Below are positions 8,032 to 38,169 of a stretch of DNA of 45,789 nucleotides, piece by piece. Numbering within the stretch: position 1 is the first letter of the stretch; each line of letters opens with the position of its first letter. Position numbers and translations under genes: made by a program. Source of the DNA: Lentisphaeria bacterium (GTDB lineage: Bacteria > Verrucomicrobiota > Lentisphaeria > Victivallales > Victivallaceae); contig JAFTDL010000352.1 in assembly GCA_017454215.1 (NCBI GenBank), positions 1 to 45,789 of the forward strand, in the 5' to 3' direction. The notes beneath the pieces were generated by a model. The model was not told the origin of the DNA, did not search any database, and worked only from the letters and a program-made list of their open reading frames with translations.

Positions 8032-8054
8032 GTTTTCGTCCTCCGGGATCGAAG

Positions 8055-8083
8055 AAAATATCACCGACTGCGGACATTGTCAA
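8055..8083 (-). promoter_or_regulatory. Sigma70-like promoter for the SGNH hydrolase gene
   Basis: Minus strand: TTGACA (8083-8078), 17-nt spacer, TATTTT (8060-8055). It lies about 25 nt upstream of ATG 8031. Confidence 0.5.
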
Positions 8084-8269
8084 GCAAAAAAAGCGTCCGA
8101 TCAGTATTTTTCAGCCGTTTTTCCCGACGGCGCCGTCCCGTGAGGCCGGAAATCTGCGGAAAACACCGTTTCACGGCACGGCGGCCGACGTCACCGTGCT
8201 TCCCCGGATCGGTCATAGGGGCGGAACGGACGTCTGACGGCCGGGCAGCCGATCTCAAAATTGATATTT

Positions 8270-8326
8270 TTTGCAAACATATTGATATCCCCGGGATTTG
8301 CAAAAAACATTCCCCTGTCTTAAATT
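8270..8326 (+). promoter_or_regulatory. Bipartite TTTGCAAA-N19-TTTGCAAA element fused to the promoter of the pseudopilin/GH operon
   Basis: The palindromic octamer TTTGCAAA occurs at 8270-8277 and 8297-8304. The 19-nt spacer contains TTGATAT. The second octamer supplies -35 TTGCAA (8298-8303), followed by a 17-nt spacer and TAAATT (8321-8326). The same architecture is found at 15549-15605 on the minus strand. Confidence 0.5.
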
Positions 8327-8396
8327 AGTATTGCGCAAGGGCAAATACATTCAGAACAACCGGATCGAGAAACATGAACAGAAGGGGGATGTGTCG

Positions 8397-9284: not shown

Positions 9285-9357
9285 TCTTCCGGAGTCCGCT
9301 TTTCCGCCGGCCGCAACACCGCGGATGCCCAAATCTTTTCGATCGGAGAAACATAAA

Positions 9358-12300
9358 ATGCTGAAAAAAATATCGCTTCTGCTTCTGTCGACCGGAACTC
9401 TGCTGTCGCACGCCCGGCCCGAACTGCTGCAGAACGGCGATTTCCGGAATGGACTTGACTGCTGGAATGTACGGGACCCAAACGGTGTATCCGTCGTTGA
9501 AAATGCCGCTCCCGGCGGCGGGAACGCGTTGAAGGCGGTATCCGTAAAAGAACATTATGCCGTCAATTACACATTTAAGGGAAAAAAACTCAAGCCCGAT
9601 ACGGATTATACCCTGCACGGCTGGATCAAAACCGACGGCAGCGCCGGAGTTTACCTTTATTTCACCACGCTGCCGGTCATCGACGGGGTCCAGCGTTCCG
9701 CCCGTTCCCGGGTTTTCCGAAAGACTTCGGATTGGACCGAAGTCAGCGTTCTGCTCAACAGCGGCAAAGCGACCAGTATGCCGGTGCTGACGCGGGTGAT
9801 CGGCAAAGGAACGGCGTGGTTTGCCGGCATTTCCATCGAAGAGGGGAATCATCTGCCGCAGGAGAATCTGATCGCCAACAGTGATTTCAAATCAATGACC
9901 CGTTACCGCGAAGTTCCGGACAACTGGACCCCGAATCTCCACACGGGAGCGGCGGAGCCCGAAAACTATATTTTCAGACTCAGCAGGGAAACGCCGCCGC
10001 TGCCGGATGCCGGGGTGCTGGAAGTTGCCGGAGCGCAGATATCTCCGCAGCTGATCCAGCCGCCGGAACCGCAGCTGGCGCACACCTATTCCTTTTATGC
10101 CAAAAATGCTGTCCCCGGGAAAAACGCGCAGCTCGCCGTCCGTTTCGGCTTCAACACATACCGTCCGGCGAAGTTCCTGTTGACGGACCGTTGGAAACGC
10201 TACTCATTCACCAGCGATCTGAAAACAGGCAGTCCGTCCCTGTGCGTTTATTCGCCGGACAACGGACGTTTTCTCTATTCCGCACCGCAGTTGATCCTCG
10301 GGGAAAAACCGCAGCCGTGGAAAGCTCCGGATCCCCGTCCCGCCGTCCGTCCGGTCACGGAGAACCGGGAGGCTGCCGCGGAAGCCGTCAGCCGGGAAAT
10401 TTCAGGAGAGCCGTCCGAAGCGGATTGGTCTGCGGCTCCGGCTTATCCCATCCGTCATGTCAGCAGAGGAAACCGGCTGGGCATTGTCGGGTCACATGTC
10501 GGGATCCTGCACAATCGGGAATACATTTTTATCCGTTTCACCGGAAAAAAAGATCCGGCGATCGAACCCGGCAGCCGTTCGAGTCTGGATTGGCGGAATA
10601 TCGGCGATACCTTTGAACTGTTCATCACCGATACGGCAATGGACGGCACATACGTCCACTATGCCGTCAACGAAAACGGACACAGTTATTCCGGACGCGG
10701 CAAGGAAACCGAAATGCTGGAAATAACGTCCCGGGTGACTCGACATCACGACCGCTGGACCGCGGATGTCAAAGTCCCGCTCAACATGTTCCATTCCGAC
10801 AGAAGCTGGAAGATCGCCTTCGGGCGCTGTTACGATCACCGCCGTTACCGGAGAATGGCATTGGACTGGTCGATGCCCGAAAGCCGTCACAATACCGCGA
10901 AATTCGGTATTTTGAGAGGCGTGTCCGTCAAACCGCAGCCTTCGCCGGAACTGGCAAAGCTTTATGGGTCCATCGACGAAAGGAAGCTGCATTTCGAATT
11001 CAGAAATTTCAGAAAGGAAATGCTTCCCGGAAATCTGGAAGTTGTCATTTTCCGGCAGAACCGGCGTTTCTGGAGGCATGAACAGGTGTTGAACGGCACA
11101 TCCGGCGAAATCATTCTGCCGCAGAACTATGCGGAAATGATGGATTCGGAGACCCGGATCCGGCTGACGGTCGCCGGGAAGAACGGACATGCCTGCTATC
11201 AGGCCTCGCGGATACTTTATCTGCTGTTTTCTTCCTTTGCGCGGCATGATCCGGCGATGTTCGTTTATCCGAAATACAATTTTTTCACCGAACGGGATCG
11301 TACCGTCGATCTTCTCGTCAGACTGGATAAAAAACGGTATGACGATTTGCGGATTTCCGTTCTCGACAGAAACGGGAAAACGGTGTTCGAACGGACGACC
11401 TCCGGAAATATCTGCATCCCGGGCGACAAGATCCCCTTCGGCGATTACAGGATCAGGGTGACAGCCCTGAAAAACGGTGAAGCTGCCGGTATCCGCTGCT
11501 ATGAATCTTTCCGGAAACAGCCGTTCCGTCCTGAAATGATCAGGATCAACCGTTTGACCGGCTGTCTGATGAGTGCGGAAAAACCACTGCTCCCGATGCT
11601 GTACTATCCGGGCCCCAATGACCGTTACGCGTATGATCCCGACCGTGATTCGGATATGGATCGCCTGTTCGAGGGAGCGTTGAAAGCCGGATTCAATGGC
11701 GTGAAGACCGCATTTTCGCTGCGCGATCCGGTAAAAGAGGAACAATGGCTGAAAATCGCGGCAAAACACGGTTCATTCTTTCTCGCGGACCTCGAACCGC
11801 TGTATCCTCCCGGCTTTTACGGCAAACGGTCCGAAAACATGACCGGCGCAGAGACCGAAAAGATCATGATCGAATATACCGGAAAGATGCTCAAACACTG
11901 TTTCGGGAAACCGGGCATCCTCTCTTATGCGCCGTATCACGAACCGGGATATTACCGCCGGGGGAAAGGCATCGTCGATTCGTACCGGGCGGCAAAGCTC
12001 CTTCCGGAACTGCGAAAAGAAGATCCCTATCGCCCGCTCACCGGCTTCTGGGCGCCGCCGCATTGGGATTCCAACGGTGAACCGTTCGGTTCGGTCGATG
12101 CCGCGGATTATTTCATCGTGGATGTTTATACCCGCAACCTGAGAAAACATTGCGATGAATTGTTCCGCATCAGCCATGCCTCCCGTATCGTCCGGCGTCC
12201 GATCGGTCAGATCTTCAATATCGACAATCAGGGATCGGATGAGCGCGAGTGTCCGACTCCGGCAGAGTACAAAGCGGAAGTATATGCGGCTCTGGCCGCC

Positions 12301-12687
12301 GGATACCGGGTGTTCTTCCCCTATATCGGCGTTGCTCCGGTCCGGGAAACCTGGCGGGAAATGATCCGCGTCAACCGTCAGCTGCCGGTCATTGCCGGAT
12401 TCATTTGCCGCGACGACTGCAGGGAACTGGCTTCGGTCAATGACGAACATGTCTGCTATGCCGTCTATCGGCGCGGCAGTGAATTGATCGTGATCGCGGC
12501 AGGAAAAGAAAATGCCGCAAAAAGCCGTCTGCGCATAGACATGAAAAGATTGGCCGGCATCGGAAATGCTTCGGGGAAAGAACTTTTCACCTCTGAGAAA
12601 GTCCGTGTGCAAAACGGATCGTTCGAATATCTCCTGCCGCCGGCAGGCAGCGGCATCTGGGTATTCCGGTGTCCGGATGCAAAATGA
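9358..12687 (+). CDS. Secreted multidomain glycoside-hydrolase-like protein (CBM4_9-like plus CBM9-like modules, C-terminal TIM-barrel-like domain; 1109 aa)
   Basis: ORF 8998..12687 trimmed to ATG 9358 (MLKKISLLLLSTGTLLSHA signal peptide, GGAGAA Shine-Dalgarno). ELLQNGDFRNGLDCWNV is CBM4_9-like. WSAAPAYPI, YIFIRFTG, DTFELFI and WTADVKVPLNMF are CBM9-like. The C-terminal region contains YAPYHEPGYY, resembling the clan GH-A NEP acid/base motif. The family is unverified. Confidence 0.75.
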   Translation: MLKKISLLLLSTGTLLSHARPELLQNGDFRNGLDCWNVRDPNGVSVVENAAPGGGNALKAVSVKEHYAVNYTFKGKKLKPDTDYTLHGWIKTDGSAGVYLYFTTLPVIDGVQRSARSRVFRKTSDWTEVSVLLNSGKATSMPVLTRVIGKGTAWFAGISIEEGNHLPQENLIANSDFKSMTRYREVPDNWTPNLHTGAAEPENYIFRLSRETPPLPDAGVLEVAGAQISPQLIQPPEPQLAHTYSFYAKNAVPGKNAQLAVRFGFNTYRPAKFLLTDRWKRYSFTSDLKTGSPSLCVYSPDNGRFLYSAPQLILGEKPQPWKAPDPRPAVRPVTENREAAAEAVSREISGEPSEADWSAAPAYPIRHVSRGNRLGIVGSHVGILHNREYIFIRFTGKKDPAIEPGSRSSLDWRNIGDTFELFITDTAMDGTYVHYAVNENGHSYSGRGKETEMLEITSRVTRHHDRWTADVKVPLNMFHSDRSWKIAFGRCYDHRRYRRMALDWSMPESRHNTAKFGILRGVSVKPQPSPELAKLYGSIDERKLHFEFRNFRKEMLPGNLEVVIFRQNRRFWRHEQVLNGTSGEIILPQNYAEMMDSETRIRLTVAGKNGHACYQASRILYLLFSSFARHDPAMFVYPKYNFFTERDRTVDLLVRLDKKRYDDLRISVLDRNGKTVFERTTSGNICIPGDKIPFGDYRIRVTALKNGEAAGIRCYESFRKQPFRPEMIRINRLTGCLMSAEKPLLPMLYYPGPNDRYAYDPDRDSDMDRLFEGALKAGFNGVKTAFSLRDPVKEEQWLKIAAKHGSFFLADLEPLYPPGFYGKRSENMTGAETEKIMIEYTGKMLKHCFGKPGILSYAPYHEPGYYRRGKGIVDSYRAAKLLPELRKEDPYRPLTGFWAPPHWDSNGEPFGSVDAADYFIVDVYTRNLRKHCDELFRISHASRIVRRPIGQIFNIDNQGSDERECPTPAEYKAEVYAALAAGYRVFFPYIGVAPVRETWREMIRVNRQLPVIAGFICRDDCRELASVNDEHVCYAVYRRGSELIVIAAGKENAAKSRLRIDMKRLAGIGNASGKELFTSEKVRVQNGSFEYLLPPAGSGIWVFRCPDAK

Positions 12688-18987: not shown

Positions 18988-19679
18988 AGAACCTCAGGAC
19001 CAACGCCCTCCGTCTGCTCTCCGCAGCCGGGATCGCCTGCGAGGAACGCTTCTACGACGTTTCCGACGGCCGCATCGACGCCCTCGCCATCGCCGAAAAA
19101 CTCCGCGAATCCCCCGATCAGGTCTTCAAAACTCTCGTCACCTGTTCCAACAGGGGGGAGCATTTCGTTTTCGTCGTCCCCGCCGCGGCGGAGCTGGACC
19201 TCAAAAAAGCCGCGGCGGCGGCCGGGACAAAAAGCATCGGAATGATCCCGCAGAAGGCCCTTCTGCCCCTGACCGGATACGTTCACGGCGGCTGCTCTCC
19301 CGTGGGCATGAAAAAGTTTTTTCCCACCTTCATCGACGAAACGGCCCGGCTTTTCGACTACATCTGCGTCAGCGCCGGAGCCGTCGGCGCCAACATGGCC
19401 GTCGATCCCGACGCCCTCTGCCGCTTCCTCCCCGCTTCCTACGCCGACCTCGCCGTTTTCCGGTATGCTTTGTTCCCGGCGATACGGGAGCGGTCCGTTA
19501 CCCGTCTGCGCGATACGGGCCGGGCCTTTCACCGGCCCGTGCGGGGAACAGAGCCGAAAAAATATATTTTTTCTTCGACAATGGGAAATATGCGCCTTGA
19601 ATTTCGCTGTTTCCTCCGTATATTATATTCAGTATTGTCACAATGCGAACGGTCAACGTATTTCAACATCAAATTTTGA
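18984..19679 (+). CDS. ybaK: Cys-tRNA(Pro)/Cys-tRNA(Cys) deacylase YbaK-like, with a roughly 73-aa C-terminal extension
   Basis: ATG 18984 overlaps the rsmA stop (ATGA). YbaK-family segments: QVFKTLV, FVFVVPAAAELDLKKAA, TGYVHGGCSPVGMKK, YICVSAG. Family-like sequence ends near residue 158 (about nt 19458). The frame stays open to 19679. Confidence 0.8.
   Translation: MKNLRTNALRLLSAAGIACEERFYDVSDGRIDALAIAEKLRESPDQVFKTLVTCSNRGEHFVFVVPAAAELDLKKAAAAAGTKSIGMIPQKALLPLTGYVHGGCSPVGMKKFFPTFIDETARLFDYICVSAGAVGANMAVDPDALCRFLPASYADLAVFRYALFPAIRERSVTRLRDTGRAFHRPVRGTEPKKYIFSSTMGNMRLEFRCFLRILYSVLSQCERSTYFNIKF
19597..19624 (+). promoter_or_regulatory. Sigma70-like promoter upstream of the LysM/ATPase operon
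   Basis: TTGAAT (19597-19602), 16-nt spacer, TATATT (19619-19624), in an AT-rich patch. It lies inside the ybaK 3-prime extension. Confidence 0.4.
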
Positions 19680-19698
19680 AAAGGGCGGGAGTGTGAAA

Positions 19699-20802
19699 AT
19701 GAAAAAAAGCGGTGTTTTTCTGGCGTTTGCCGGTCTGGCGGTCCTGGCGGGATGCCGAAGCGAGGTGATGGATGATCGCAAGTATGCGCCTCTCAAAGAC
19801 GAAGCGGATGTGTCCCAGACACGCCGGATGGATGATATGAGTTCTCAGCAGGGCACGCAGTCCGTTCCCCAGCCGGGACCGGATGTTTCCCCGGCACCGG
19901 CACCGGCGGCGGCTCCCGCCGCGGCGACTGAGGCCGATCCCGTTCCGGCCCGGACTCAGGCGCCGGCGAGACCGGCTTTCGCACCGATGGAAAAGAGAGA
20001 TTATCCCGTGGGACTTGCCTCCGACGGCCGGGGCGCTTCCCGCAGGGGTTCCGCGGTCAGAGGCGGTGAAAAGGGCACTTACGTGGTCAAGGTCGGCGAC
20101 AATCCCGGCAAGATCGCGCGCCGCTTCAACATCTCCGTCAAGGCCCTCCTCGACGCCAACAACATGACCGAAAAGGACGCCAAAAAGCTTTATGTGGGCC
20201 GCAAGCTCGTCATTCCCGCCGGAGGAAAAGCCGCGCGGAGTTCCGAGTCCCGCGGCGGCAAAGCCGGTAAGAAAGGCAAAGCCGAAACCTCCGCCACGTC
20301 CGCCAAAGGCGGCGTCTACGTGGTCCAGCCCGGAGATTTTCCGGAGCGCATCGCCCGCCGCAACAAGGTGAAGCTGTCCGATCTGCTCAGGGCGAACGAC
20401 CTGACGGTCGAATCCAGCCGCAAGCTCAGGGTCGGTCAGAAGCTGGTGATCCCCGGCGCGGGAAGCACGGCGGTCGCCGCGGCCAAGCCCAAGGCGAAGA
20501 AGTCCGCCGCCGCGGCTGCGGCTCCTGCCGAAACTGCGCCCGCCGCGCCGGCGGACGGCGTGAAAACGGCGGACAAGCTTGCCGACGACCTCGAAAATAA
20601 CATGCCCGCGGCCAAGCCCGCCGCCGACGAAGCCAAAAACGAAACGGATCTTCTGGAGGTCCCCGAGGATACCACCCTTAAAGCTCTCGCGGCCAAATAC
20701 AACACCACCGAGAGCAGACTGCGCAGTCTCAACGATAATTTCGCCGGAGACACGGTGCCGAAAGGGACCATCTTCTTCGTTCCTGCCCAACTGAAAAAGT
20801 AA
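19699..20802 (+). CDS. Lipoprotein with three LysM peptidoglycan-binding domains
   Basis: ORF 19465..20802 trimmed to ATG 19699 (MKKSGVFLAFAGLAVLAGC, lipobox LAGC). LysM repeats: YVVKVGDNPGKIARRFNISVKALLDANN...GRKLVIP, YVVQPGDFPERIARRNKVKLSDLLRANDL...GQKLVIP, and LEVPEDTTLKALAAKYNTTESRLRSLND...GTIFFVP. They are separated by Ala/Pro/Lys-rich linkers. Confidence 0.85.
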   Translation: MKKSGVFLAFAGLAVLAGCRSEVMDDRKYAPLKDEADVSQTRRMDDMSSQQGTQSVPQPGPDVSPAPAPAAAPAAATEADPVPARTQAPARPAFAPMEKRDYPVGLASDGRGASRRGSAVRGGEKGTYVVKVGDNPGKIARRFNISVKALLDANNMTEKDAKKLYVGRKLVIPAGGKAARSSESRGGKAGKKGKAETSATSAKGGVYVVQPGDFPERIARRNKVKLSDLLRANDLTVESSRKLRVGQKLVIPGAGSTAVAAAKPKAKKSAAAAAAPAETAPAAPADGVKTADKLADDLENNMPAAKPAADEAKNETDLLEVPEDTTLKALAAKYNTTESRLRSLNDNFAGDTVPKGTIFFVPAQLKK

Positions 20803-20823
20803 GACGGCCGAGGGGAGAGCGCC

Positions 20824-22308
20824 TTGGAGTACAATCCCGTCACACTCATTCTTCTGCTGGCATGGCTTTTGTGCGGCATCCGCGTGCTGGACAAAGTCAA
20901 CGCGTCTCCTGCGAAATGGCGGAGGAAAAAAGAGGATGACGGGAAGCACGGCATCGAGTGGCTGATCCTCTTTTTCGGCCCCGTCTTTCTGCTCGTCACG
21001 GCCGGGAAAGAATTCTGGGAGACCCGTCTGCAGAATGTGTTCGTGCGGGTGAAACGCCGGGCCAGATACGGCGGTATCACGATCCTCGACTCCCGCGGCA
21101 GTCCGCTGTACGGAGACGACTGCGACAACCCCGCCGTCGACGCCTTCAAGGATATCTTTCTGGAAGCCGCGAAGAGAGGCGCCAGCGACGTTTTCTTCGA
21201 TCCGGCGCCGGAAGGCGGCACCGCGCTGCGTTTCCGCATCGACGGAATTCTCGTTGCGCAGGAACCCCTCGTCTCCGGTCTCGGTGAAAATGTCATCAGC
21301 GCCGTCAAGGTCGCCGCGGGAATGAACATCGCCGAAAAACGTCGCCCCCAGGACGGCGCGTTTTCGGCGATGATCTCCGGCAGACCTGTGTCGTTCCGCG
21401 TCGCCTCCGCAGGAGCCGCCGGCGGAGAGAAACTCACCGTTCGTCTGCTGGGCGCCGGGTCCGCCCCGCGGACACTTGACGAGATCGGTTTCAGCGACGA
21501 TCAGCTCCGGCTGCTGAAGCGCTCCGTTTCTCTCTCGTCGGGAATGATCTTGATATGCGGCGCCACGGGCAGCGGAAAGACCACCACGCTGTACGGGCTG
21601 ATCGAAAATATCGACTTTTCGCTCAAAAACGTCATCTCCATCGAAGATCCGGTGGAGCGCGTCATTCCCGGGGTGAGCCAGATGGAGGTCAATGCCGCCG
21701 CGGGGATCACCTTTGCCGGTCTTCTGCGCAACGCCCTGCGCCAGAATCCCGACGTCATCTGCCTCGGCGAGATACGCGACGAGGAGACTGCGCAGATCGC
21801 CGTTCACGCGGCGCAAACCGGACACCTGATCGTCTCGACCATTCACGGAAACGATGCCGTGGACACCTTCGACCGCCTGACCGGCCTCGGCGTTCCCCTG
21901 CGCAGTCTGGCCGCCACGGTCAGGATCATCGTCAATCAGCGCATGGCCCGCAGACTGTGCAGAAAATGCCGGGCACCCCTGCCGGAACTTCCCGAAAAAT
22001 GGCGCGCCATCTTCGCCGAAAACAAAATCGATCCCTCCGGCGTCTGCCGGGCCGTCGGCTGTCCCGAGTGCGGCGGCACGGGTTTTCAGGGCCGCGCAGC
22101 CTGTTTCGAAATGCTCGTCGTCGACAGCGAACTCAGGGAAGAACTGGAACAGGAAAATGTTTCGCTGTCGAAGATCAGACAGTTCGCGCAGGCGAGGGGC
22201 GCATCCGGCAGTTTGCCGATCCACGGCGCCCGTCTGGCCGCCGAAGGCATCACCTCGCTGGACGAGATCGACCGGATAACCCTTTCTCTCGACGGAGACA
22301 CAATATGA
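20824..22308 (+). CDS. GspE/PilB-type secretion ATPase with an N-terminal two-helix membrane anchor instead of the usual N1 domain
   Basis: TTG start with AGGGGAGAG 4-5 nt upstream. Predicted TM helices VTLILLLAWLLCGIRVL and WLILFFGPVFLLVTAG. Walker A GATGSGKTT (21559-21585), Asp box ISIEDPVE, Walker B DVICLGEIRDEE, His box TGHLIVSTIHGND. Tetracysteine motif CRKC...CPEC (21958-22071), characteristic of assembly-type ATPases. Confidence 0.9.
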   Translation: MEYNPVTLILLLAWLLCGIRVLDKVNASPAKWRRKKEDDGKHGIEWLILFFGPVFLLVTAGKEFWETRLQNVFVRVKRRARYGGITILDSRGSPLYGDDCDNPAVDAFKDIFLEAAKRGASDVFFDPAPEGGTALRFRIDGILVAQEPLVSGLGENVISAVKVAAGMNIAEKRRPQDGAFSAMISGRPVSFRVASAGAAGGEKLTVRLLGAGSAPRTLDEIGFSDDQLRLLKRSVSLSSGMILICGATGSGKTTTLYGLIENIDFSLKNVISIEDPVERVIPGVSQMEVNAAAGITFAGLLRNALRQNPDVICLGEIRDEETAQIAVHAAQTGHLIVSTIHGNDAVDTFDRLTGLGVPLRSLAATVRIIVNQRMARRLCRKCRAPLPELPEKWRAIFAENKIDPSGVCRAVGCPECGGTGFQGRAACFEMLVVDSELREELEQENVSLSKIRQFAQARGASGSLPIHGARLAAEGITSLDEIDRITLSLDGDTI

Positions 22309-22901
22309 CAGGACTTCTCGTTTTCATGGGCATTCCCCTGCTTTTCGCTCTCATGGCCCTGCAGTCGCCGTTTTTTCAGAACTGGCGTTTCTTCGTCGCT
22401 CTGTCGGCCTCGGTCTATTTCGCGCTGTGGACAGGATCCCTGCACCGGGCGGTCCTGCCGCTGCTGACGGGGGAGTTTTCCCCCTGGGCCCCGGTCATCG
22501 CCATCGGCGGCGCGGCGTTTCTGTGCTGCTCGGTTCTGCTTAAGATCGCTTCGGATCTCTCCTCCCACGGCGGCGGCGGATATCATCTGCCGGGCAAAAA
22601 AAATCTGCTGGTCCCCGTTACGGGATTTCTCTCGGGCTACGTTGTCTCGGGTCTGGCCGCATATCTGCTCTGCATCTCCCCCCTGCACGAAACCGTCGCG
22701 CGGGACAAGGCCTTTGCCGACCGGGCCGTGGACCGGGTGCTGGTGTTCACCCGCGTCATCGACCGGATGACTTTTCAGCGTATTCCGGCATCTTCCCGCA
22801 GAAGCTGCCTGATGGCGCGGATCAAGACGCCGCCCCCCGCGGCGTCCGCGTCCGAAAATTCTTCCGCCGCAGAAAAAACAACCGAAAATAAAGGAAAATG
22901 A
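22305..22901 (+). CDS. Hypothetical 4-TM inner-membrane protein (CvpA-like topology, family unverified)
   Basis: Last 198 codons of ORF 21555..22901. ATG 22305 overlaps the upstream stop (ATGA). Four hydrophobic helices: LLVFMGIPLLFALMAL, FFVALSASVYFALWTG, VIAIGGAAFLCCSVLLKIA, VTGFLSGYVVSGLAAYLLCI. A hydrophilic C-terminal tail follows. Confidence 0.6.
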   Translation: MTGLLVFMGIPLLFALMALQSPFFQNWRFFVALSASVYFALWTGSLHRAVLPLLTGEFSPWAPVIAIGGAAFLCCSVLLKIASDLSSHGGGGYHLPGKKNLLVPVTGFLSGYVVSGLAAYLLCISPLHETVARDKAFADRAVDRVLVFTRVIDRMTFQRIPASSRRSCLMARIKTPPPAASASENSSAAEKTTENKGK

Positions 22902-22904
22902 CCC

Positions 22905-25094
22905 ATGACCATCGGAGAACTTCTGGTTTACGCCTCCACCAGCGGGGCATCCGATCTTTTCATCACTTCGGGCAAGGCCCCCTCTTTCCGGATCAACGGC
23001 GAACTGACCGTGAGCGGGGAACAGCCCGCGGCGGCCGGAGACATCGACGATTTCCGCCGCAGCGTCATCGCCGGGGAAGACGAGGCGCGTTATCAGCAGA
23101 CGGGGAGCGCGGAATCGGCCTTTTCTCTCTCGACGGGCGAAAGGTTCCGGGTGAACTTCTTCCTGACCTCGGGCGGACCCGGTTTCGCCGCCCGCCCGCT
23201 TCCCTCCGGGGGCGATCTTTACATCGAATCTCTCGGTCTGCCTCAGGTGCTGGGAGAGATCTGTGCGCAGAAACACGGTCTTGTCATCGTTGCAGGCACC
23301 AGCCGGTGCGGCAAATCGACCACGCTCGGCGCGCTGATCAACCAGATCAACATGACGGAAAACCGCCACATCATCACGCTGGAAAACCCCGTTGAATTTC
23401 TCTTTCCGGACCAGACGGGCGTCGTTACCCAGCGGGCCGTGGCCGGAGGAAATTTTGCCGAAGCCATCCGCAGCGCCCGGCATGAAAGTGCCGACGTCAT
23501 CGCCGTCGGCGATCTGCCCGACCGGGATTCCGTGCGGGCCGCCGTCAAAGCCGCCCTCAACGGCCAGCTGGTCATCGCCGTCATGGTTTCTCCCGACGCC
23601 GTTTCGGCGATAACGAAACTCATCAGGATCTTCCCCGAAGAGGAGCGGACGCAGGCCGCCTCCGACCTCGGACGTGTGCTCGTTGCGGTCATGGCCCAGC
23701 GCCTTGTCCCCCGTCAGGACGGCGCGGGACTGGTCGCCGCAGTGGAATTGCTCCGCTGCACCGACGCGGTCAGGAAACTCGTCGAAGAACAGGATTTCGC
23801 CGCGATCCGGGAAACGCTGAGCCGTGCCGGCGGCAACGGAACGGTCAGTTTCAACCGGGCCCTCTTCTATCTGATCCGCGACGGTTACCTCGACGCCGCC
23901 CGCGCCGCGGAGTTCAGCGACACGCCCGACGAACTCGAACTGCTGGTCAAAGGAATGGATTCACAGACCAACGAAAAACAGTACGGCACCCCCGACGACG
24001 CCGCCGAAGGAGACGTGGTGGACCTGCCGAAACTTCTGCGTTCGGCCATCAAGCTCGGGGCATCCGATCTTCACATTTCGGTCAACGCCCACCCCATGAT
24101 GCGCGTCCACGGCGAACTGCGTTCGCTGGGATTGCCGAAACTCAGGCCGCAGGACACCAGGCGTCTCCTCTTCGGCATGCTCACGCCCCAGCAGAAGATC
24201 GCCTTCGAAACGAGCAAGGAACTCGACCTGGCCCTCACCGTCGAAGGCAAACCCGATGAAAACGGCGAGAGGGAGGTGAGCCGTTTCCGCGTCAACGCCT
24301 ACTACCAGCGGGGCTACGTGGGGATCGTCGCCCGCGTCATCACGACGAACATTCCCTCTCCCGAATCGCTGAATCTGCCGGAGCCGATCGTCAATCTCTG
24401 CGAGAAAAAGCAGGGGCTCATTCTCGTTACCGGTCCCACGGGAAGCGGCAAATCAACCACGCTGGCCAGTTTGATCGACCGCATCAACAGCACCCGGGCC
24501 GAACACATCATCACCATCGAGGATCCCATCGAGTACGTGCACAGGAACAAGAAGAGCCTGATCCAGCAGCGGGAACTCAACGCCGACACCATGAGTTTCT
24601 CAAGGGCGCTCAAATCCGCCCTGCGTCAGGATCCGGACGTGATCCTCGTGGGTGAAATGCGCGACCCCGAAACCATATCCGCCGCCCTCACCGCCGCGGA
24701 AACCGGCCACCTGGTCATGGCCACGCTGCACACCAACAGCGCCGCCCAGACCATCGACCGCATCATCGACACCTTCCCCTCGGAGCAGCAGAACCAGATC
24801 AGGCTCCAGCTTTCAAGCTGTGTCATAGGCATCATTTCTCAGCGGCTCCTGATGCGGGCCGACACCGACGGACGGGTGGCTGCCTTCGAGATCCTCATCG
24901 GCACCCCGCCCGTTCAGGCGCTGATCCGCGACGGCAAGACCAGTCAGCTCACCTCGGTCATGGAGACCGGTTTCAAGGACGGCATGATCACCATGCGCCG
25001 CTCCCTTGAGGAACTCCTCGCGCAGGGCCTCATTTACGAAGAGGATGCCAAGGCGCTCTCGCTCGACGCCGTCGAAGTCCAGTCTTTTGAATAA
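22905..25094 (+). CDS. Tandem PilT/PilU-type ATPase fusion (degenerate N-terminal copy plus canonical C-terminal copy), 729 aa
   Basis: One continuous ORF.
- N-half (aa 1-350): Walker A AGTSRCGKST is retained. The Asp box is TLENPVEF. Walker B is DVIAVGDLPD (Glu to Asp, Arg to Pro). The His box is NGQLVIAVMVS (both His lost).
- A roughly 20-aa acidic linker follows.
- C-half (aa 372-729): canonical GPTGSGKST (24432-24458), TIEDPIEY, DVILVGEMRDPET, TGHLVMATLHTN, and a PilT-like VQALIRDGK. Confidence 0.9.
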   Translation: MTIGELLVYASTSGASDLFITSGKAPSFRINGELTVSGEQPAAAGDIDDFRRSVIAGEDEARYQQTGSAESAFSLSTGERFRVNFFLTSGGPGFAARPLPSGGDLYIESLGLPQVLGEICAQKHGLVIVAGTSRCGKSTTLGALINQINMTENRHIITLENPVEFLFPDQTGVVTQRAVAGGNFAEAIRSARHESADVIAVGDLPDRDSVRAAVKAALNGQLVIAVMVSPDAVSAITKLIRIFPEEERTQAASDLGRVLVAVMAQRLVPRQDGAGLVAAVELLRCTDAVRKLVEEQDFAAIRETLSRAGGNGTVSFNRALFYLIRDGYLDAARAAEFSDTPDELELLVKGMDSQTNEKQYGTPDDAAEGDVVDLPKLLRSAIKLGASDLHISVNAHPMMRVHGELRSLGLPKLRPQDTRRLLFGMLTPQQKIAFETSKELDLALTVEGKPDENGEREVSRFRVNAYYQRGYVGIVARVITTNIPSPESLNLPEPIVNLCEKKQGLILVTGPTGSGKSTTLASLIDRINSTRAEHIITIEDPIEYVHRNKKSLIQQRELNADTMSFSRALKSALRQDPDVILVGEMRDPETISAALTAAETGHLVMATLHTNSAAQTIDRIIDTFPSEQQNQIRLQLSSCVIGIISQRLLMRADTDGRVAAFEILIGTPPVQALIRDGKTSQLTSVMETGFKDGMITMRRSLEELLAQGLIYEEDAKALSLDAVEVQSFE

Positions 25095-25108: not shown

Positions 25109-25909
25109 ATGCGACAGAGAATGCTGCTTCTGCTGGCCGTCATCTTCGGCCTGCTGGCTTTCGTGCTGACCTATCAGCAGATCGAGGCGGAAAAACGGCG
25201 CATCGCGGGGGACTCCGAAACGGCGATCCTCATTCAGGTGACGCGCAACATGGTCGAGGGCGAGACGCTGACCGAAAAGGACGTGGCCCGCTACACGGTC
25301 AAACGCCGCCGCGAAGCCATGGCCAACAGCCGCGAGATCCCCTGGTCGCAGCTGTACAGGGTGGTCAACCACAAACTCGACACCTCCATCAACAGGGGAC
25401 AGATCCTCCAGACCACCGACATCAAGTTCGGTTCCCGGCGCAACGGTTTCAGCGGCATCGTTCAGGACGGCTGGCGGGCGGTCTCCATTCCCGTCGATCC
25501 CGTTTCGTCGGTCAACAACCTCATCCAGCCCAACGACAACGTGGACGTCATCGGGACCTTCCGTTTCCCCGACGTGCGGGGCGACAGCGCCCTCGACACG
25601 GTCACGCTGACCATCCTGCAGGACGTGAAAGTCCTTGCCGTGGGCAGCCGCTGGCAGTCCGCCGCGGCCGCCGAACAGAACGCCCCGCGGACCTACGGCA
25701 CCGTCACGCTGCAGCTGATGCCCGACGAGGTGGAAATGCTCATTTTCGCCTCGCAGAAGGGCAAGATAACCCTCTCTCTGCGCAACTTCGAGGATACCCG
25801 GATCGCCCGCGACATCGAGAAGCGCAGCGTCAACTTCAAACTGCTCGAAAAAGAGATACCCGGCTACAACAAACGCCGCGAAGACCGCCGCAACAGGAGG
25901 ATGAAGTGA
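25109..25909 (+). CDS. cpaB: Flp/Tad pilus assembly protein CpaB (RcpC)-like
   Basis: N-terminal TM helix MLLLLAVIFGLLAFVL. SAF-like domain (VTRNMVEGETLTEKDV). RcpC-like C-terminus (DVIGTFRF..., VLQDVKVLAVG, TLQLMPDEVEMLIFASQKGKITLSLR). AAGGGGGA Shine-Dalgarno. Confidence 0.85.
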   Translation: MRQRMLLLLAVIFGLLAFVLTYQQIEAEKRRIAGDSETAILIQVTRNMVEGETLTEKDVARYTVKRRREAMANSREIPWSQLYRVVNHKLDTSINRGQILQTTDIKFGSRRNGFSGIVQDGWRAVSIPVDPVSSVNNLIQPNDNVDVIGTFRFPDVRGDSALDTVTLTILQDVKVLAVGSRWQSAAAAEQNAPRTYGTVTLQLMPDEVEMLIFASQKGKITLSLRNFEDTRIARDIEKRSVNFKLLEKEIPGYNKRREDRRNRRMK

Positions 25910-27624
25910 CCGAGATCATCATCCGCCGGACCGGGAAAAATCCCGTGCGGGCCAGCCTTCCCGACGGAGCCTATCTCATCGGCGCCGGGAAAAACTGCCA
26001 CATCCCTCTCGATTCGCCGGATGTTTCCGGCCGCCACGCCCAGCTGATCGTGTCGGACAACGCCATCACCGTCATGGACCTGGGCAGCAGCAACGGCACC
26101 TATGTCAACGGCAGCGCGGAACCGCTTTTCGCCAATCAGATGACGCCCCTCGCTCCGGGAAGCGTCCTCCGGCTGGGCAAAAACGTGGAGATCACCATAG
26201 GGCGCGCACCCGCCGCGGACGCGTCCGCACGGGAGTCCCGGCCGCAAAAGGACGCGCCGCGTCCGCCGGAGACGGACGATTTTCTTGCCCCCGACAGGGG
26301 CGAGATCCCGGTCCTCACCGTCTCCGGCGTGCCGCCGCGGCTGCGGCCCCTCGTTCAGGAGATCAAGCGCCAGGCTCACAAGGAACTGCTCAAGCGCATG
26401 AATCTCAAGAAGATGGCTCTGTCGGGAATTTCCGAAAGCGAATTGGCCGATCAGGCCAAGCGCATGATCCGCGAGATCCTCTCGGTGCTCAACGTCAAAC
26501 TGCCAGAAGGACTTTCCGTCGAAGTCATCGAAAAGGAGCTCATCCAGGAAGCTATCGGCCTCGGGCCGCTGGAGTACCTCATTGCCCGGGACGATATCAG
26601 CGAGATCATGGTCAACGGTCCCAATCAGGTCTATGTGGAGCACAAGGGCATGCTCTACCGCACCGACGCCGCCTTTGCCGACGACAATCAGGTGCTGGCC
26701 TCGATCGAGCGCATCGTGGCCCCTCTGGGCCGGCGCATCGACGAAAGTTCCCCCATGGTGGACGCCCGTCTGGCCGACGGCAGCCGCGTCAACGCCATCA
26801 TTCCGCCGCTGTCGCTGGTGGGGCCGACGATCACCATCCGCAAATTCACCCGAACGCCCCTGCAGGCCCGCGATCTGGTCAATTTCGGCTCCATCAGTCC
26901 CGAGATGGTGAAGTTTCTCGCCGTCTGCGTGGCGGTACGGAAGAACATCATCATCTCGGGCGGAACGGGCTCCGGCAAAACGACACTGCTCAATGTGCTG
27001 AGCAGTTTTCTGCCCAACCGCGAGCGCATCGTCACCATCGAGGACGCCGCGGAACTTCAGCTCCATCAGGAGCATATCGTGCGTCTCGAAGCCCGTCCGC
27101 CCAACATCGAAGGCCGGGGAGAGGTGACGATCCGCGACCTCGTCCGGAACTCTCTGCGCATGCGGCCGGACCGCATCGTCGTCGGCGAGTGCCGCGGCGG
27201 CGAAGCGCTGGACATGCTTCAGGCCATGAACACCGGTCACGACGGCAGTCTGACCACGATCCACGCCAACTCGCCCCGGGATGCCCTGGCCCGTCTGGAG
27301 ACTCTCGTTCTCATGTCCGGATTCGATCTGCCTCTGCGCGCCATCCGCGAACAGGTGGCTTCGGCCATCAACATCATCGTGCAGATCACCCGCGAGCGCG
27401 ACGGCAGCCGCAAGGTGGTCAACATCAGCGAGATCGTCAAGATGGAGGGCGACATCATCACCATGCAGGACATCTTCGTCTTCCGTCAGACCGGCTGGGA
27501 CGCCCGGAACCGCATCACCGGCGTCTTCGAGCCCACGGGGAGCATTCCCAGCTTCATGGAGGACATCCGCCGCGCCAAGCTCGATCTGGACGTCTCCCTC
27601 TTCTCCCCCCGAAAACAGTCCTGA
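25906..27624 (+). CDS. cpaF: FHA-domain-fused CpaF/TadA-type ATPase
   Basis: GTG 25906 overlaps the cpaB stop (GTGA), with CAGGAGG upstream. It is the last 572 codons of ORF 25006..27624. FHA motifs: [40 protein letters not shown] Pro/Asp-rich linker follows. CpaF core: ISEIMVNG, Walker [10 protein letters not shown] (26959-26982), [36 protein letters not shown]. Confidence 0.9.
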
Positions 27625-36303: not shown

Positions 36304-37146
36304 TTACTTGAGAGCCGTCCCGTTGAACGGCGCATAGTTGCGCAGGATCACCTGCGGGTGACCCTCCTGCACATCCGTGCGGATGGCATTGGTCTGCAGT
36401 CTGGCGGGTGCGGCGCCGACCCATGCCTGCTGCTGCGGTATCGCGACCGTCTCCATGTGACCGTCGCACATGACCATGTTGTAGCTTCCGGAGTGCCGGA
36501 AGTTGACGAGACCGGAGTCGATCCCTGCGGAATTACCGTCCATGACCCACGCCATCTTGGAGTAGGACGCCGTGCCGCGTACGCCGCTGAGCTTGAACAT
36601 CCCCGCGACCCAGTCGCCGCTCCACTGCGGAGTCACCCCGGTCGTGCCGCCTCCGTCGCCCAGAGCCATATTCAGAAAGTAGGAGGTCCCGCCCCGGAAT
36701 CCCTGCGTCGTGGACGGACAGCGCGCAATGCCCGTGGGGACCGTCTTGCCGATCTTCACACCCTCGACATGGACCGTCATGTTGAGGTAACCCAACTTCC
36801 CGGGACGCGTCGTCGAACTCGTCGGATCATACGCGCTGCACAGAAGAACGGTCCAGTAGACTCCGTCCGTCTTGCTCATGACCTTGCTGTAGCCCGCCCC
36901 CCAGCCGCTGTAGTCGTTGGCATAGAACGTCAGTCCCTGCCCCGTCTGCCGGAGGTTGCCGACACAGGAAATGGCCCGCCCCCTCTCCCGCGCCTGCTGC
37001 AAAGCGGGCATCAGCATCGCGGCCAGAATGGCGATGATCGCTATCACGACCAGAAGTTCGATCAACGTGAAACGCGCATCCGTCCTGCCCTTGTCCGTCG
37101 CCCGAATGCTTTTTGCCCCGTCGCGAAAGGTGTCTCTTTTCATCAT
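36304..37146 (-). CDS. DUF1559/HX9DG-family pseudopilin-like protein
   Basis: [75 protein letters not shown]. The C-terminal [14 protein letters not shown] is an exact H-X9-DG. The AGGAGG Shine-Dalgarno favours the second ATG (37143). Confidence 0.85.
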
Positions 37147-37184
37147 TGCCTCCTGTTTTCAATGCGGTTCGGTTTTCTTTTCAT

Positions 37185-37213
37185 ATTTTACTTGAGAAAC
37201 CGCTTCCCGGCAA
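37185..37213 (-). promoter_or_regulatory. Sigma70-like promoter of the pseudopilin/GH/GH operon
   Basis: Minus strand: TTGCCG (37213-37208), 17-nt spacer, TAAAAT (37190-37185). Confidence 0.45.
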
Positions 37214-37265
37214 TGACCGGTTTTCTTTTTTGATGATTTATTTTCTCAAATAACGTCGAAAACTG

Positions 37266-37294
37266 TTGACATCCGCCCGCGAAACGGGTATAAT
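37266..37294 (+). promoter_or_regulatory. Consensus sigma70 promoter of the divergent AraC gene
   Basis: Perfect TTGACA (37266-37271), 17-nt spacer, TATAAT (37289-37294). It lies 24 nt upstream of ATG 37318, which has a GGAAGGAG Shine-Dalgarno. Confidence 0.6.
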
Positions 37295-37317
37295 AAGCGA
37301 TCGGAAGGAGAAAAATC

Positions 37318-38169
37318 ATGCTGGACCGCAGTTACTACAAGACGACCGACTGGATCTTCAGAAAGGATCCCGGCTTTCCGCTGCGCGTCAGCAAACAGCT
37401 TCCGCAGGAGGTGTCGCACTCCCACGAGCACGAGTTCTGCGAGTGCATCTTCGTCATTTCAGGCAGCGGCATGCACCAGTCGGAGAAAAATCCCCCCGTG
37501 CCCGTCCGGCGCGGAGACGTGTTGTTTATTCCCATCGGCGGTCACCATGCCTACACCGAAGTGCACGATCTGATCATCTTCAACCTGCTCTTCTACGCCC
37601 CCAGACTCCCCTCGGTCCTGCTGGAACTCTACGCTTCCGCCGCCTACAAACAGGTGTTCCTCAAAAAATTCGTCCCCGGAGACAAAGAGGATTTTCCCAT
37701 GACCCGCCTCGACGAAAAAACCTTCTCCGAACTGGAGACCCTGCTGAATTTCCTCGCCCGAAGCGACAGCCACTGCTGCAAAATGGGCATCTTCGTCGCC
37801 ATCATCGGCCGCCTGTGCGAAGTCTGGAAGATCCCCGAAGAGGAAAAACTTCCCCCTCTCGATATTTTCAAACTCACCGCCTTCATGCAGCAGAATTTTC
37901 AGCGTCCCCTCACCATGAAAGACCTCTGCCGCCTCGCCGCCATGTCCACCGCCACTCTGCAGCGCCACTTCCGCGCCGCCCTCGGCGTCCCTCCCATGAC
38001 CTATCTGCACAACCTCCGCCTCGAACACGCCGCGGAACTGCTGATAAATACCGAACTTACCCTCACCGAGATCGCCGAACTCTCCGGCTTCCCGCAAATG
38101 CCCCCCTTCTTCCGCGCGTTCAAAAAATGCTACCGCGTCACCCCTCTCCAATACCGCCGCAAAAAGTGA
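37318..38169 (+). CDS. AraC-family transcriptional regulator with an N-terminal cupin domain
   Basis: Cupin-like HSHEHEFCECIFVISGSGMH...GDVLFIPIGGHH. C-terminal HTH pair: MKDLCRLAAMSTATLQRHFRAALGVPPMTYLHNLRLEHAAELLINTELTLTEIAELSGF. Confidence 0.85.
   Translation: MLDRSYYKTTDWIFRKDPGFPLRVSKQLPQEVSHSHEHEFCECIFVISGSGMHQSEKNPPVPVRRGDVLFIPIGGHHAYTEVHDLIIFNLLFYAPRLPSVLLELYASAAYKQVFLKKFVPGDKEDFPMTRLDEKTFSELETLLNFLARSDSHCCKMGIFVAIIGRLCEVWKIPEEEKLPPLDIFKLTAFMQQNFQRPLTMKDLCRLAAMSTATLQRHFRAALGVPPMTYLHNLRLEHAAELLINTELTLTEIAELSGFPQMPPFFRAFKKCYRVTPLQYRRKK

Follow-up and report, generated by a model that had tools for sequence, protein, structure and literature searches.

A tandem PilT-PilT protein of Victivallaceae with a degenerate N-terminal catalytic site: a possible single-chain version of the PilT-PilU double ring

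The window examined here, meaning the whole 45,789-nucleotide stretch of DNA from a gut Victivallaceae bacterium, was found to encode a tandem PilT-PilT gene at positions 22905..25094 (+), an ORF with an ATG start and no internal stop codons that specifies 729 aa followed by a stop. Upstream of it, a LysM-repeat protein with a lipoprotein-like N-terminus (MKKSGVFLAFAGLAVLAGC) and three Pfam LysM repeats is encoded at 19699..20802 (+), this upstream neighbour also being present at loci L001, L005, L007, L022, L033 and L034. Next are a PilB/GspE-like ATPase of 494 aa (20824..22308, +; Pfam T2SSE, 333 bits), whose motifs are canonical and whose N-terminus is hydrophobic, and a 198-aa protein with three to four hydrophobic segments (22305..22901, +), whose ORF overlaps the stop of the pilB-like gene by 4 nt. 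No Pfam match was obtained for the 198-aa protein, copies of which (38-46% identical) were identified at L005, L006, L007, L022 and L033. Downstream of the tandem gene are ORFs for a CpaB/RcpC-family protein (25109..25909, +; Pfam RcpC, 97 bits), which is 85-93% identical in group B loci, and for a 572-aa protein with an FHA domain fused to a CpaF/TadA-like ATPase (25906..27624, +; Pfam FHA and T2SSE), which is 76-82% identical in group B loci. No pilin, platform (pilC-like) or secretin gene was found in the operon, an absence that counts against the double-ring reading given below. In groups A and B the tandem gene was found inside a conserved six-gene module. The pilB-like gene lies upstream of every N-site-degenerate tandem gene of groups A, B and C and adjoins no canonical tandem gene.

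Both halves of the tandem protein were found to match the TIGR01420 (pilT_fam) model end to end, giving two stretches with a sum of 727.3 bits. In a profile search, residues 3-343 of the N half matched positions 2-343 of the 343-position model with 267.8 bits, and the C half matched positions 2-338 with 463.6 bits. The curated cutoff of this model is 319.1 bits, which the C half exceeds, while the N-unit, in spite of its full-length match, falls below it and would not be assigned to the family on its own. The two halves are 31% identical over 349 aa (E = 2e-52), and the C-unit scored 341 bits against PilT_Gm (6ojx). Assignment of the tandem protein as an extension ATPase of the PilB/GspE type was rejected, as PilB/GspE models gave only 220-233 bits against cutoffs of 630-676. 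The tetracysteine motif CxxC...CxxC is absent from the 729-aa sequence.

The N-unit (aa 1-350; 22905..23954, +) possesses a complete PilT fold, with an N-domain and an ATPase domain, and belongs to a divergent paralogue lineage with a degenerate catalytic site. Its motifs were called by column-by-column alignment with Aquifex PilT (2gsz/2ewv). The Walker A GTSRCGKST (aa 131-139; 23295..23321, +) retains the GxxxxGK[ST] pattern, and the Asp box TLENPVEF (aa 158-165; 23376..23399, +) has Asn in place of Asp with both Glu residues kept. In the atypical Walker B DVIAVGDLPD (aa 197-206; 23493..23522, +) the catalytic Glu is replaced by Asp and the GEMRD Arg by Pro, and the His box NGQLVIAVMVS (aa 219-229; 23559..23591, +) has lost its two histidines, to Gln and Val respectively, and has Asn instead of the preceding Thr. 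The C-unit (aa 373-729; 24021..25091, +) begins at the equivalent of PilT D2 and is by sequence a genuine PilT whose motifs are all canonical, namely Walker A GPTGSGKST (aa 510-518; 24432..24458, +), Asp box TIEDPIEY (aa 537-544; 24513..24536, +), Walker B with catalytic Glu DVILVGEMRD (aa 578-587; 24636..24665, +) and His box TGHLVMATLHTN with two histidines (aa 600-611; 24702..24737, +). Hence the Walker A pattern is found in both units, while the Dh4GE pattern (Walker B and catalytic Glu) and intact His and Asp boxes are found in the C-unit and not in the N-unit, where only the Asp-box Glu residues remain. Between the units lies a junction (aa 351-372, MDSQTNEKQYGTPDDAAEGDVV; 23955..24020, +), an acidic C-terminal extension of the N-unit that resembles the one specific to PilU, of which residues 352-372 (DSQTNEKQYGTPDDAAEGDVV; nt 23958-24020) form the acidic linker. 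A sequence-only reading of this DNA had proposed two complete PilT units in one chain, a fully canonical C-unit, these same N-unit substitutions and an acidic linker, all of which were borne out, the motif calls in alignments to PilT of known structure.

Segments resembling AIRNLIRE are recognisable but imperfect in both units (PPVQALIRDGK in the C-unit, family consensus PPVxALIREGK; DAVRKLVEEQD in the N-unit, consensus VRKLIxE), and family member P0106 carries an exact AIRNLIRD. An AF2 model built with an alignment gave pLDDT values mostly of 85-97 over the N-unit range and of about 55 at the junction; with a pTM of 0.56 for the monomer, the mutual placement of the two units is not fixed by this model.

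The same fusion was sought in other genomes and was found in more than 110 proteins of the same length, including those of cultured strains. The identical tandem protein is present on five contigs, and 115 of the best 120 homologues were 690-780 aa long with a query coverage of 94-100%. The continuous ORF with its conserved junction recurs in more than 110 independent assemblies across several phyla, and complete genomes or cultured strains with the tandem architecture include Chondromyces crocatus (CP012159), Victivallis vadensis DSM 14823 and Lentisphaerota zth2 (CP071032). Tandem PilT-PilT proteins form a real, ancient and monophyletic family that is rare, accounting for about 12 of 7,816 PilT-family clusters. 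It was hitherto unnamed and unstudied and is defined in this analysis by two complete PilT units in one ORF, a junction of 20-28 aa and the conserved pattern G-M ... D-[LM]-x-x-L-L, all of which are present in the window protein (G350, M351, D373, L377). The canonical members (from V. vadensis DSM 14823, Lentisphaerota zth2, C. crocatus and C. apiculatus), whose annotation goes no further than 'PilT/PilU family type 4a pilus ATPase', have their architecture, junction and two-clade structure in common with the window protein. However, in these members both units are canonical and the genes are orphans without shared neighbours, whereas the clade of the window has a degenerate N-site in a gene situated behind a pilB-like gene.

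A neighbour-joining tree (100 bootstraps) including four PilT references and a single PilU reference (PilU_Pa) placed all N-units in one clade and all C-units in another, each with 100/100 bootstraps, with the two units of the window protein falling in the respective clades. Because of this support, and because the N-unit and C-unit subtrees mirror one another, the fusion is attributed to a single ancient event. Within these clades the window protein falls inside the branch of the Lentisphaeria, beside the canonical Victivallis-type P0032. The C-units together with the four PilT references were split from the N-units and PilU_Pa in 90/100 bootstraps, a neighbour-joining result with one PilU reference. 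These relationships indicate that the C-unit is a true PilT and that the N-unit represents a separate PilT paralogue lineage. PilU_Pa joins the branch between the N-units and the group of PilT and C-units, at about equal distances (1.20 versus 1.11), and since the N-units form a clade of their own they were not filed as PilU. The tree thus shows no specific affinity of the N-units for the one PilU sequence included, an observation that counts against a PilU-type position for them in a double ring.

The junction was found to be constrained across the family, its length being held at 20-28 aa, with G350 conserved in 99% and M351 in 91% of members and a net negative charge in 109 of 115 proteins. 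The window protein carries K349-G-M-D-S here, and the junction of P0032 (LLLKGMESGVDSLRSLY) aligns with residues 345-364 of PilU_Pa (LMIKLGSESDADHLSSLT). The N-unit extends about 30 aa beyond the end of PilT_Pa, giving it the extended C-terminus characteristic of PilU, for which a contact with the PilT N-domain may be supposed. A helical DEFxLL segment ahead of the junction is also present in Aquifex and Thermus PilT, so that only the part following it is PilU-like. It has been described that the C-terminal extension of PilU (K348, D366, E368) contacts PilT D2, R35, K36 and E53 in the stack of the two motors. The first residue of the C-unit corresponds exactly to PilT residue 1-2. The D2 equivalent is Asp in 91% of tandem C-units versus 33% of 54 free PilTs, with the R35 equivalent being Arg in 73% versus 13%; neither position is conserved in the N-unit. 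Conservation in the tandem family does not extend to the equivalents of K36 and E53, a Lys like PilU K348 occurs in only 61% of it, and AIRNLIRE-like segments occur in both tandem units and not in PilU; these observations count against a double ring. PilU drives retraction with its own ATPase activity and so has a catalytically competent site. The window N-site departs from this, since its catalytic Glu is absent, as are the Arg and the His pair, all of which canonical family members have.

The degenerate N-site in the lineage of the window is confined to a Victivallaceae subclade (P0001-P0030), which is monophyletic in both halves (bootstraps of 99 and 100, and of 100 in a second tree) and sister to P0032. 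The dead N-site is a derived condition reached by stepwise loss in this one subclade, and the fusion is not the intrinsic pairing of an active with an inactive unit for which it had at first been taken, as both units are normally canonical in the family. The Asp-box Asp, the GEMRD Arg and the second His were lost first; in the window protein and its 91%-identical relatives, replacement of the catalytic Glu by Asp and of the first His by Gln came afterwards. Independent decay of the N-unit was identified in P0130, where the Walker A Lys is also gone, and in P0146, where no recognisable motifs remain, with canonical C-units in both. Loss of the N-site has thus arisen at least three times across the family with C-unit motifs unchanged, and no cluster was found with loss of the C-site only. 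Given this one-sided pattern and the N-unit always being the faster-evolving half (49% identity versus 59% for the C-unit among canonical pairs), catalysis at the N-site is probably dispensable.

The dN/dS values of both units (0.15-0.19 for the N-unit versus 0.04-0.09 for the C-unit) indicate purifying selection. In a 71-sequence alignment of the N-unit, G131, G136 and K137 of the P-loop, the N-domain arginines R80, R82 and R97 and the Asp-box residue E164 were invariant, and the Asp-box E160 was conserved in at least 90%. The length of the protein is steady at 729-733 aa throughout the clade, down to an N-unit identity of 46-48%, and no truncated form without the N-unit was found among close relatives. 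These data point to an N-unit that is still functional and kept by selection. The suggestion made from the sequence alone, that the N-unit binds nucleotide and does not hydrolyse it, is a reasonable reading of a site in which the P-loop, the arginines and E164 are invariant and the catalytic residues are gone.

PilT and PilU are described as head-to-tail stacked hexamers on the basis of genetics, AF3 modelling and cryo-ET, with PilT bridging PilU to the machine, and were reported to be separate homohexamers and not mixed rings (Chlebek et al.). A stacked double ring had been considered undescribed for retraction ATPases in the sequence-only reading, which these non-covalent double hexamers now contradict. 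For the tandem protein, we regard it as an even prospect that it forms a covalent double ring of the PilT-PilU type, with a live proximal C-ring and a distal N-ring that would bind nucleotide without hydrolysing it. Six chains would form two coaxial, head-to-tail hexameric rings, of which the PilT-like C-ring would engage the platform protein, hydrolyse ATP and by itself power retraction, while the N-ring would occupy the position of PilU and its acidic 'linker' of about 23 aa would serve as a C-terminal extension akin to that with which PilU grips the PilT N-domain. This arrangement is favoured because the junction is PilU-like, because the C-unit has its first residue at PilT position 1-2 and because the positions equivalent to D2 and R35 are conserved. 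In the subclade of the window the distal ring would have lost hydrolysis stepwise; as its P-loop, arginine fingers and fold are kept under purifying selection, it may have become a nucleotide-binding ring with a structural or regulatory role.

The first arrangement raised in the sequence-only reading, a single alternating ring, appears unlikely. Here three fused chains would make a pseudo-hexamer (N-C-N-C-N-C) of C3 symmetry with three live sites and every second site dead, the N-unit ATPase domain and the C-unit N-domain forming an intramolecular 'packing unit'. In PilT/VirB11-like hexamers each packing unit indeed pairs the N-domain of a chain with the ATPase domain of the chain next to it, PilT adopts a 'trimer of dimers' state (C3, OCOCOC) that would be open to an alternating ring, and both tandem units have a complete N-domain and ATPase domain. 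Furthermore, the constrained linker of 20-28 aa could equally span neighbouring subunits, and loss from the N-unit of the closed-interface Thr/His pair (T221 and H230, PilT_Gm numbering) would fit alternate interfaces that never close. However, a C2-symmetric rotary cycle has been proposed for PilB and PilT, with which an ABABAB ring clashes because opposite sites would always be one live and one dead. Loss of one site type should cripple such a ring, yet the N-site was lost at least three times; stacked rings would leave a homomeric live ring. The PilU-like junction and the D2/R35 conservation specific to the C-unit likewise point to the PilT-PilU stacking interface, and PilT and PilU were separate homohexamers in Chlebek et al.

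That the N-site is alive, as a slow yet functional ATPase in a divergent fusion of two motors like its canonical relatives, is improbable. In its favour, an Asp could in principle still polarise water, neither the P-loop nor the arginine fingers nor the Glu residues of the Asp box have changed, purifying selection acts on the N-unit, and group B relatives still have the catalytic Glu. On the other hand, the N-unit scores below the family cutoff and four separate catalytic elements are changed together in it. [quoted passage not shown] The His box has been described to contribute a gamma-phosphate contact, made by one of its histidines, and inter-chain cooperativity (PMC5424180), and Gln and Val replace its two histidines here. 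The lost Arg corresponds to R206 of PilT, of which the natural single change R206S is already retraction-defective. It nevertheless counts against the double-ring reading that the Glu to Asp change might leave slow hydrolysis in the putative dead tier.

It is very improbable that the N-unit is a relic heading for loss, with no nucleotide-dependent role and no use beyond that of a passive spacer or a tag for solubility. The N-unit evolves 2-4 times faster than the C-unit and the N-units of P0146 and P0130 have lost all motifs and the Walker A Lys, respectively, but its dN/dS denotes strong purifying selection, neither the Lys of the P-loop nor the arginine fingers vary, and the clade keeps both the length range of 729-733 aa noted above and, among the close relatives found, the N-unit itself. 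An artefact, in which a sequencing error, the loss of a stop codon or chimeric assembly had joined adjacent pilT and pilU genes, is excluded for practical purposes by the conservation of the fusion across independent assemblies and finished genomes, the identical copies on five contigs and the purifying selection on the junction (dN/dS of 0.02-0.12 in the four comparisons that allowed an estimate of dS), with no support found for this earlier concern.

Compared with PilT of known structure (2gsz/2ewv, 3jvu, 6ojx-6olm), the C-unit is full-length and motif-perfect, its identity being about 50% and its TM-scores in Foldseek, normalised to the target, 0.8-0.9. The N-unit shares the fold and domain order but differs in its sub-cutoff score and in missing the catalytic Glu, GEMRD Arg, Asp-box Asp and both His. 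The tandem protein further differs in having two units per chain, and no PDB chain covering both was found with Foldseek (best query-normalised TM-score of 0.45). Like the PilT-PilU stack of V. cholerae, A. baylyi and P. aeruginosa, it combines two PilT-family units, one a conserved 'primary' and one an accessory, with what is in the stack a contact between the PilU C-terminal extension and PilT N-domain residues D2 and R35/K36 corresponding to a covalent link from that C-terminus to PilT-like residue 1-2. The known stack is non-covalent, and orthology with PilU is not demonstrable for the N-unit, which keeps an AIRNLIRE-like segment; that the tandem protein stacks in this way is our inference from sequence. 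One catalytically dead ring is tolerated in the PilT-PilU stack, where ATPase-dead PilT with live PilU still retracts pili. In that published work it was PilT, the proximal ring, that was inactivated, whereas in the tandem protein the presumed distal, PilU-like unit is naturally dead.

Ring ATPases with non-catalytic nucleotide-binding units include F1 (alpha3-beta3), the D2 tier of NSF and the D1 tier of p97 (both type II AAA+) and KaiC CI/CII. In these, a duplicated P-loop unit keeps binding, loses hydrolysis and serves assembly or regulation, either in an alternating ring (F1) or in stacked tiers from a tandem chain (NSF, p97, KaiC). The tandem protein belongs instead to the PilT/VirB11-like ASCE ATPases, to which it would add a pseudo-ATPase example.

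Coordination of PilT and PilU is an active question. A head-to-tail stack of hexamers is favoured by the genetic work of 2019 and likewise by the AF3 models, cryo-ET and PilU structures published in 2025-2026, with no high-resolution structure of the pair in the literature. If the tandem protein is a double ring, the position of its junction, where a PilU tail would meet the PilT N-terminus, would be independent evolutionary support for the stacked geometry, and the single chain would offer a natural model for the cooperation of two stacked retraction motors and a stoichiometrically locked sample for solving the structure by cryo-EM. If the protein is instead an alternating ring with three dead sites, the C2 rotary model would be challenged, so that either outcome is informative. 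The dead N-unit and its canonical sisters, such as that of the culturable V. vadensis, would also provide a ready comparison for which tier must hydrolyse ATP.

More tentatively, and with some doubt, the family may be viewed as a natural 'Rosetta-stone' fusion of a two-tier motor in which evolution has repeatedly turned a PilU-like distal ring into a nucleotide-binding pseudo-ATPase, in the clade of the window and in at least two independent lineages. The core role of the distal tier would then be structural or regulatory (nucleotide sensing, stabilisation of the proximal ring or docking of other motors), and not the addition of power. In the clade of the window, this presumed conversion of the distal ring coincides with the gene joining the pilB-like / CpaB / FHA-CpaF operon.

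An ATG-initiated ORF at 22905-25094 (+) was found to encode a protein of 729 aa in which two PilT units follow one another, as the sequence-only reading had claimed; this was borne out by two full-length alignments to TIGR01420, the PilT/PilU family model. The front copy (N-unit, aa 1-350) aligned from end to end (residues 3-343 with 2-343 of the 343 model positions) and scored 267.8 bits, short of the model cutoff of 319.1 bits, and the rear copy (C-unit, aa 373-729) likewise aligned from end to end, at 463.6 bits. The halves share 31% identity (E = 2e-52) and are joined by residues 352-372 (DSQTNEKQYGTPDDAAEGDVV). Alignment with Aquifex PilT (2gsz/2ewv) placed all N-unit motifs in register and confirmed the losses read from the sequence earlier: Walker A (GTSRCGKST) retains the GxxxxGKS pattern, while the Asp box (TLENPVEF) has D replaced by N, Walker B (DVIAVGDLPD) has the catalytic E replaced by D and R by P, and the His box (NGQLVIAVMVS) is missing both His. 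All C-unit motifs are canonical. Alignment-based AF2 modelling gave four confident domains (mean pLDDT 88) without fixing the arrangement of the two units (pTM 0.56, junction pLDDT approximately 55), and single-sequence AF2 yielded a model of no use (mean pLDDT only 34). Foldseek matched PilT and PilU chains, one unit per match, with no PDB chain among these matches spanning both units.

The same fusion had been proposed as something to be sought in other genomes, and it was recovered there, including in cultured strains and a finished genome, which rules out an artefact. The protein of the window is present as identical copies on five contigs, and 115 of the 120 best homologues are 690-780 aa in length with query coverage of 94-100%. 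Their sources are MAGs of Lentisphaeria and Victivallaceae, one alphaproteobacterial MAG, Polyangiales (among them Chondromyces crocatus, with a finished genome), Lentisphaerota strain zth2 and Victivallis vadensis DSM 14823, whose tandem gene is canonical. The junction is constrained to 20-28 residues across the family, with strong conservation around it (G350, 99%; M351, 91%; D373, 91%; L377, 98%). An exhaustive HMMER search of 1.84 billion cluster representatives (E <= 1e-30) returned 7,816 PilT-family clusters, with the tandem signature in only about 12; the remainder of the list, beneath these, consists of single PilT units at approximately 350 bits or less. Judged from these comparisons, the tandem PilT-PilT architecture is real, old and rare.

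Two Saccharibacteria (Candidatus) loci (L028 and L030, 8001-10316), each a single match covering the whole tandem query, were rejected as further tandem PilTs, their first part being PilB-like and followed by PilT. As this part matches the PilB-like protein of the window (approximately 230 bits) and not a PilT unit, the loci most likely consist of a pilB and a pilT gene lying side by side. An internal start at M351 yielding a free C-unit was also rejected, with no Shine-Dalgarno-like motif found at a usable spacing. Synonymous sites upstream of M351 vary freely, and the conservation of this residue lies at the level of the protein. Databases label the tandem proteins merely as 'PilT/PilU family ATPase'. 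Literature on tandem, fused or double PilT, on pseudo-hexamer or trimer-of-dimers PilT, on PilT in Lentisphaerae and on PilT-PilU, with subscription journals thinly covered, yielded no account of a PilT-PilT fusion occurring in nature.

Relationships were examined in an NJ tree with bootstraps that covered 18 N-units and 18 C-units and, as references reconstructed from PDB alignments, four PilTs and PilU_Pa, the latter representing PilU. N-units and C-units each formed a single clade (100/100 bootstraps for both), their subtrees were mirror images of each other, and C-units grouped with the true PilTs apart from PilU (90/100). Mirrored subtrees of this kind, together with the two clades, indicate that the family goes back to a single ancient event in which a bona fide PilT (the C-unit) was fused with a separate, faster-evolving paralogue lineage (the N-unit). 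Mean identity among canonical members, those with intact catalytic motifs in both units, is 49% for N-units and 59% for C-units. Identification of the N-unit as PilU was rejected, as the tree gives it no support; the likeness to PilU is limited to the C-terminal extension, and orthology is not demonstrable.

Both sites are canonical in most of the family, with typical N-unit motifs of GxTGSGKST, TLEDPIEF, DVIVIGEMRD and TGHLVISTVHT. The pairing of an active with an inactive unit proposed earlier thus stands for the window, with its dead N-site, and does not extend to the family at large. Degenerate N-sites define a clade of homologues (P0001-P0030), all from Victivallaceae/Lentisphaeria of animal-gut origin; either half recovers this clade as monophyletic, and its sister is the canonical Victivallis-type P0032. 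Its group C (61-65% identity to the window) has mostly TLESPVEF, DCIMIGEMND and SGHLVLAATRA, with P0025 and P0029 more degenerate than the remainder, and group B (approximately 77%) has GTSRCGKST, TLENPIEF, GEL[ST][ST] and NGHLVIAVVVA. In group A, comprising the window and two relatives at 91% identity, two further residues have changed: Asp now stands in place of the catalytic Glu, and Gln in place of the first His. The N-unit Arg, among the residues lost first, is equivalent to R206 of PilT; a natural R206S variant, known from V. cholerae MO10, has a retraction defect and renders PilU indispensable. The His box touches the gamma-phosphate (PMC5424180), and mutating these catalytic motifs has been described to abolish PilT-like ATPase activity.

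Two distant homologues also carry a degenerate N-unit beside a canonical C-unit; in P0130 the Walker A Lys is gone (GNRGSGRSC), and in P0146 all motifs are gone. Because these sit elsewhere on the C-unit tree, the N-site has been lost at least three times, and its death is derived, stepwise and recurrent. Loss of the C-site alone was found in none of the clusters compared. Within P0001-P0030 the N-unit is still maintained despite the decay of its site: dN/dS is 0.15-0.19 (versus 0.04-0.09 for the C-unit), indels are absent, and G131, G136, K137, R80, R82, R97 and E164 are invariant. We read the N-unit of this Victivallaceae subclade as a pseudo-ATPase unit kept by selection.

Other distant tandem clusters depart from these patterns. 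Substitutions affect the N-unit and the C-unit alike in P0137 and P0157, with C-unit Walker B motifs (EIIVATDLPD and EVIAVSSLPD, respectively) reminiscent of the 'DLPD' in the N-unit of the window, and the C-unit of P0128 is partly degenerate. Approximately 200-400 aa beyond the two PilT units are found in P0123 (1024 aa), P0116 (1122 aa; PF14332 among its precomputed Pfam matches) and P0128 (942 aa).

The tandem gene lies within a tight same-strand module of six genes. Upstream are genes for a lipoprotein-like LysM-repeat protein (19699-20802, +), a PilB/GspE-like ATPase (20824-22308, +) and a 198-aa putative multi-pass membrane protein with three to four hydrophobic segments and no Pfam match (22305-22901, +); downstream are CpaB/RcpC (25109-25909, +) and an FHA-domain-CpaF/TadA fusion (25906-27624, +). 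With PilB-like, PilT-PilT and CpaF-like proteins, three types of type IV filament ATPase are therefore encoded in one operon. The module contains no pilin, platform or secretin genes, no platform or secretin was found among the window ORFs scanned, and no other Tad genes (TadB/C, secretin or pilin) are near CpaB/RcpC and FHA-CpaF. The same set of six genes recurs at four group B loci with differing outer flanks, and gene order matches in the two 91% relatives as far as their short contigs extend. Group C loci have the pilB-like gene upstream without CpaB and CpaF, whereas the canonical tandem genes are orphans, their neighbours being unrelated; decay of the N-site therefore coincides with linkage to the pilB-like gene.

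Extension ATPases are usually soluble, so a membrane-anchored PilB-like ATPase would be unusual. The PilB/GspE-like protein has canonical motifs, a CxxC...CxxC zinc motif and a strongly hydrophobic N-terminus (residues approximately 3-26, with a second segment at approximately 42-62), the last also kept in the homologues at loci L033 and L034. The 198-aa gene is translationally coupled (it overlaps the pilB-like gene by 4 nt and is separated from the tandem gene by 3 nt), and its product is conserved in groups A and B only, at 38-46% identity, and thus evolves fast. A conserved partner of approximately 200 aa just upstream of the tandem gene (window, L003 and L004) was rejected, as these genes are not homologous. 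The LysM gene, which has Ala/Pro-rich low-complexity stretches, is a conserved upstream neighbour of degenerate tandem genes, being present at locus L001 (8693-9721) although the pilB-like gene is absent there. LysM domains are known in the T4P-associated FimV and TsaP.

PilT and PilU have been described as separate hexamers in a head-to-tail stack, in which PilT is the bridge between PilU and the machine, one ring may be catalytically dead, and the PilU-specific C-terminal extension (K348, D366, E368) grips the PilT N-domain (D2, R35, K36, E53). The tandem C-unit starts exactly at PilT residue 1-2 (VD373LPKLL versus MD2ITELL), and the entire linker is therefore C-terminal extension of the N-unit. 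It continues past the point where PilT_Pa stops and can be aligned with the extension of PilU_Pa (P0032 LLLKGMESGVDSLRSLY versus PilU LMIKLGSESDADHLSSLT), and 109 of 115 proteins have a linker that is acidic overall. Asp at the D2 equivalent is found in 91% of tandem C-units and Arg at the R35 equivalent in 73%, versus 33% and 13% of 54 free PilT representatives, by which conservation as a merely general PilT trait was rejected; it is specific to the tandem family. The same positions are unconserved in the N-unit, and unlike D2 and R35, the equivalents of K36 and E53 are not conserved in the tandem family.

An alternating single ring (C3, OCOCOC-like) is a possible but less likely arrangement of the fusion, as it would place a dead site always opposite a live one, at odds with the proposal that these motors follow a C2 rotary cycle. 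This conflict adds to the argument for an inferred double ring linked covalently, in which the live C-ring would lie proximally and the N-ring distally, and which we favour because of the PilU-like junction, the conservation of the D2 and R35 equivalents and the acidic linker. [quoted passage not shown]

Elsewhere in the window, a prepilin-like ORF with a class III signal motif (8286-9284, +), its only pilin-like sequence, was identified directly upstream of and overlapping a 1229-aa ORF (8998-12687) with a CBM_4_9 carbohydrate-binding domain. Long antisense ORFs cover real genes at 19669-22224 (-), 22086-23483 (-) and 25864-27264 (-) (851, 465 and 466 aa, respectively); their Arg/Gly/Ala-rich, low-information translations are typical of high GC (approximately 62%), and they are almost certainly not genes. 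Lower GC (0.49-0.55 versus approximately 0.62 elsewhere) was observed at 5001-7000, 8001-9000 and 37001-38000.
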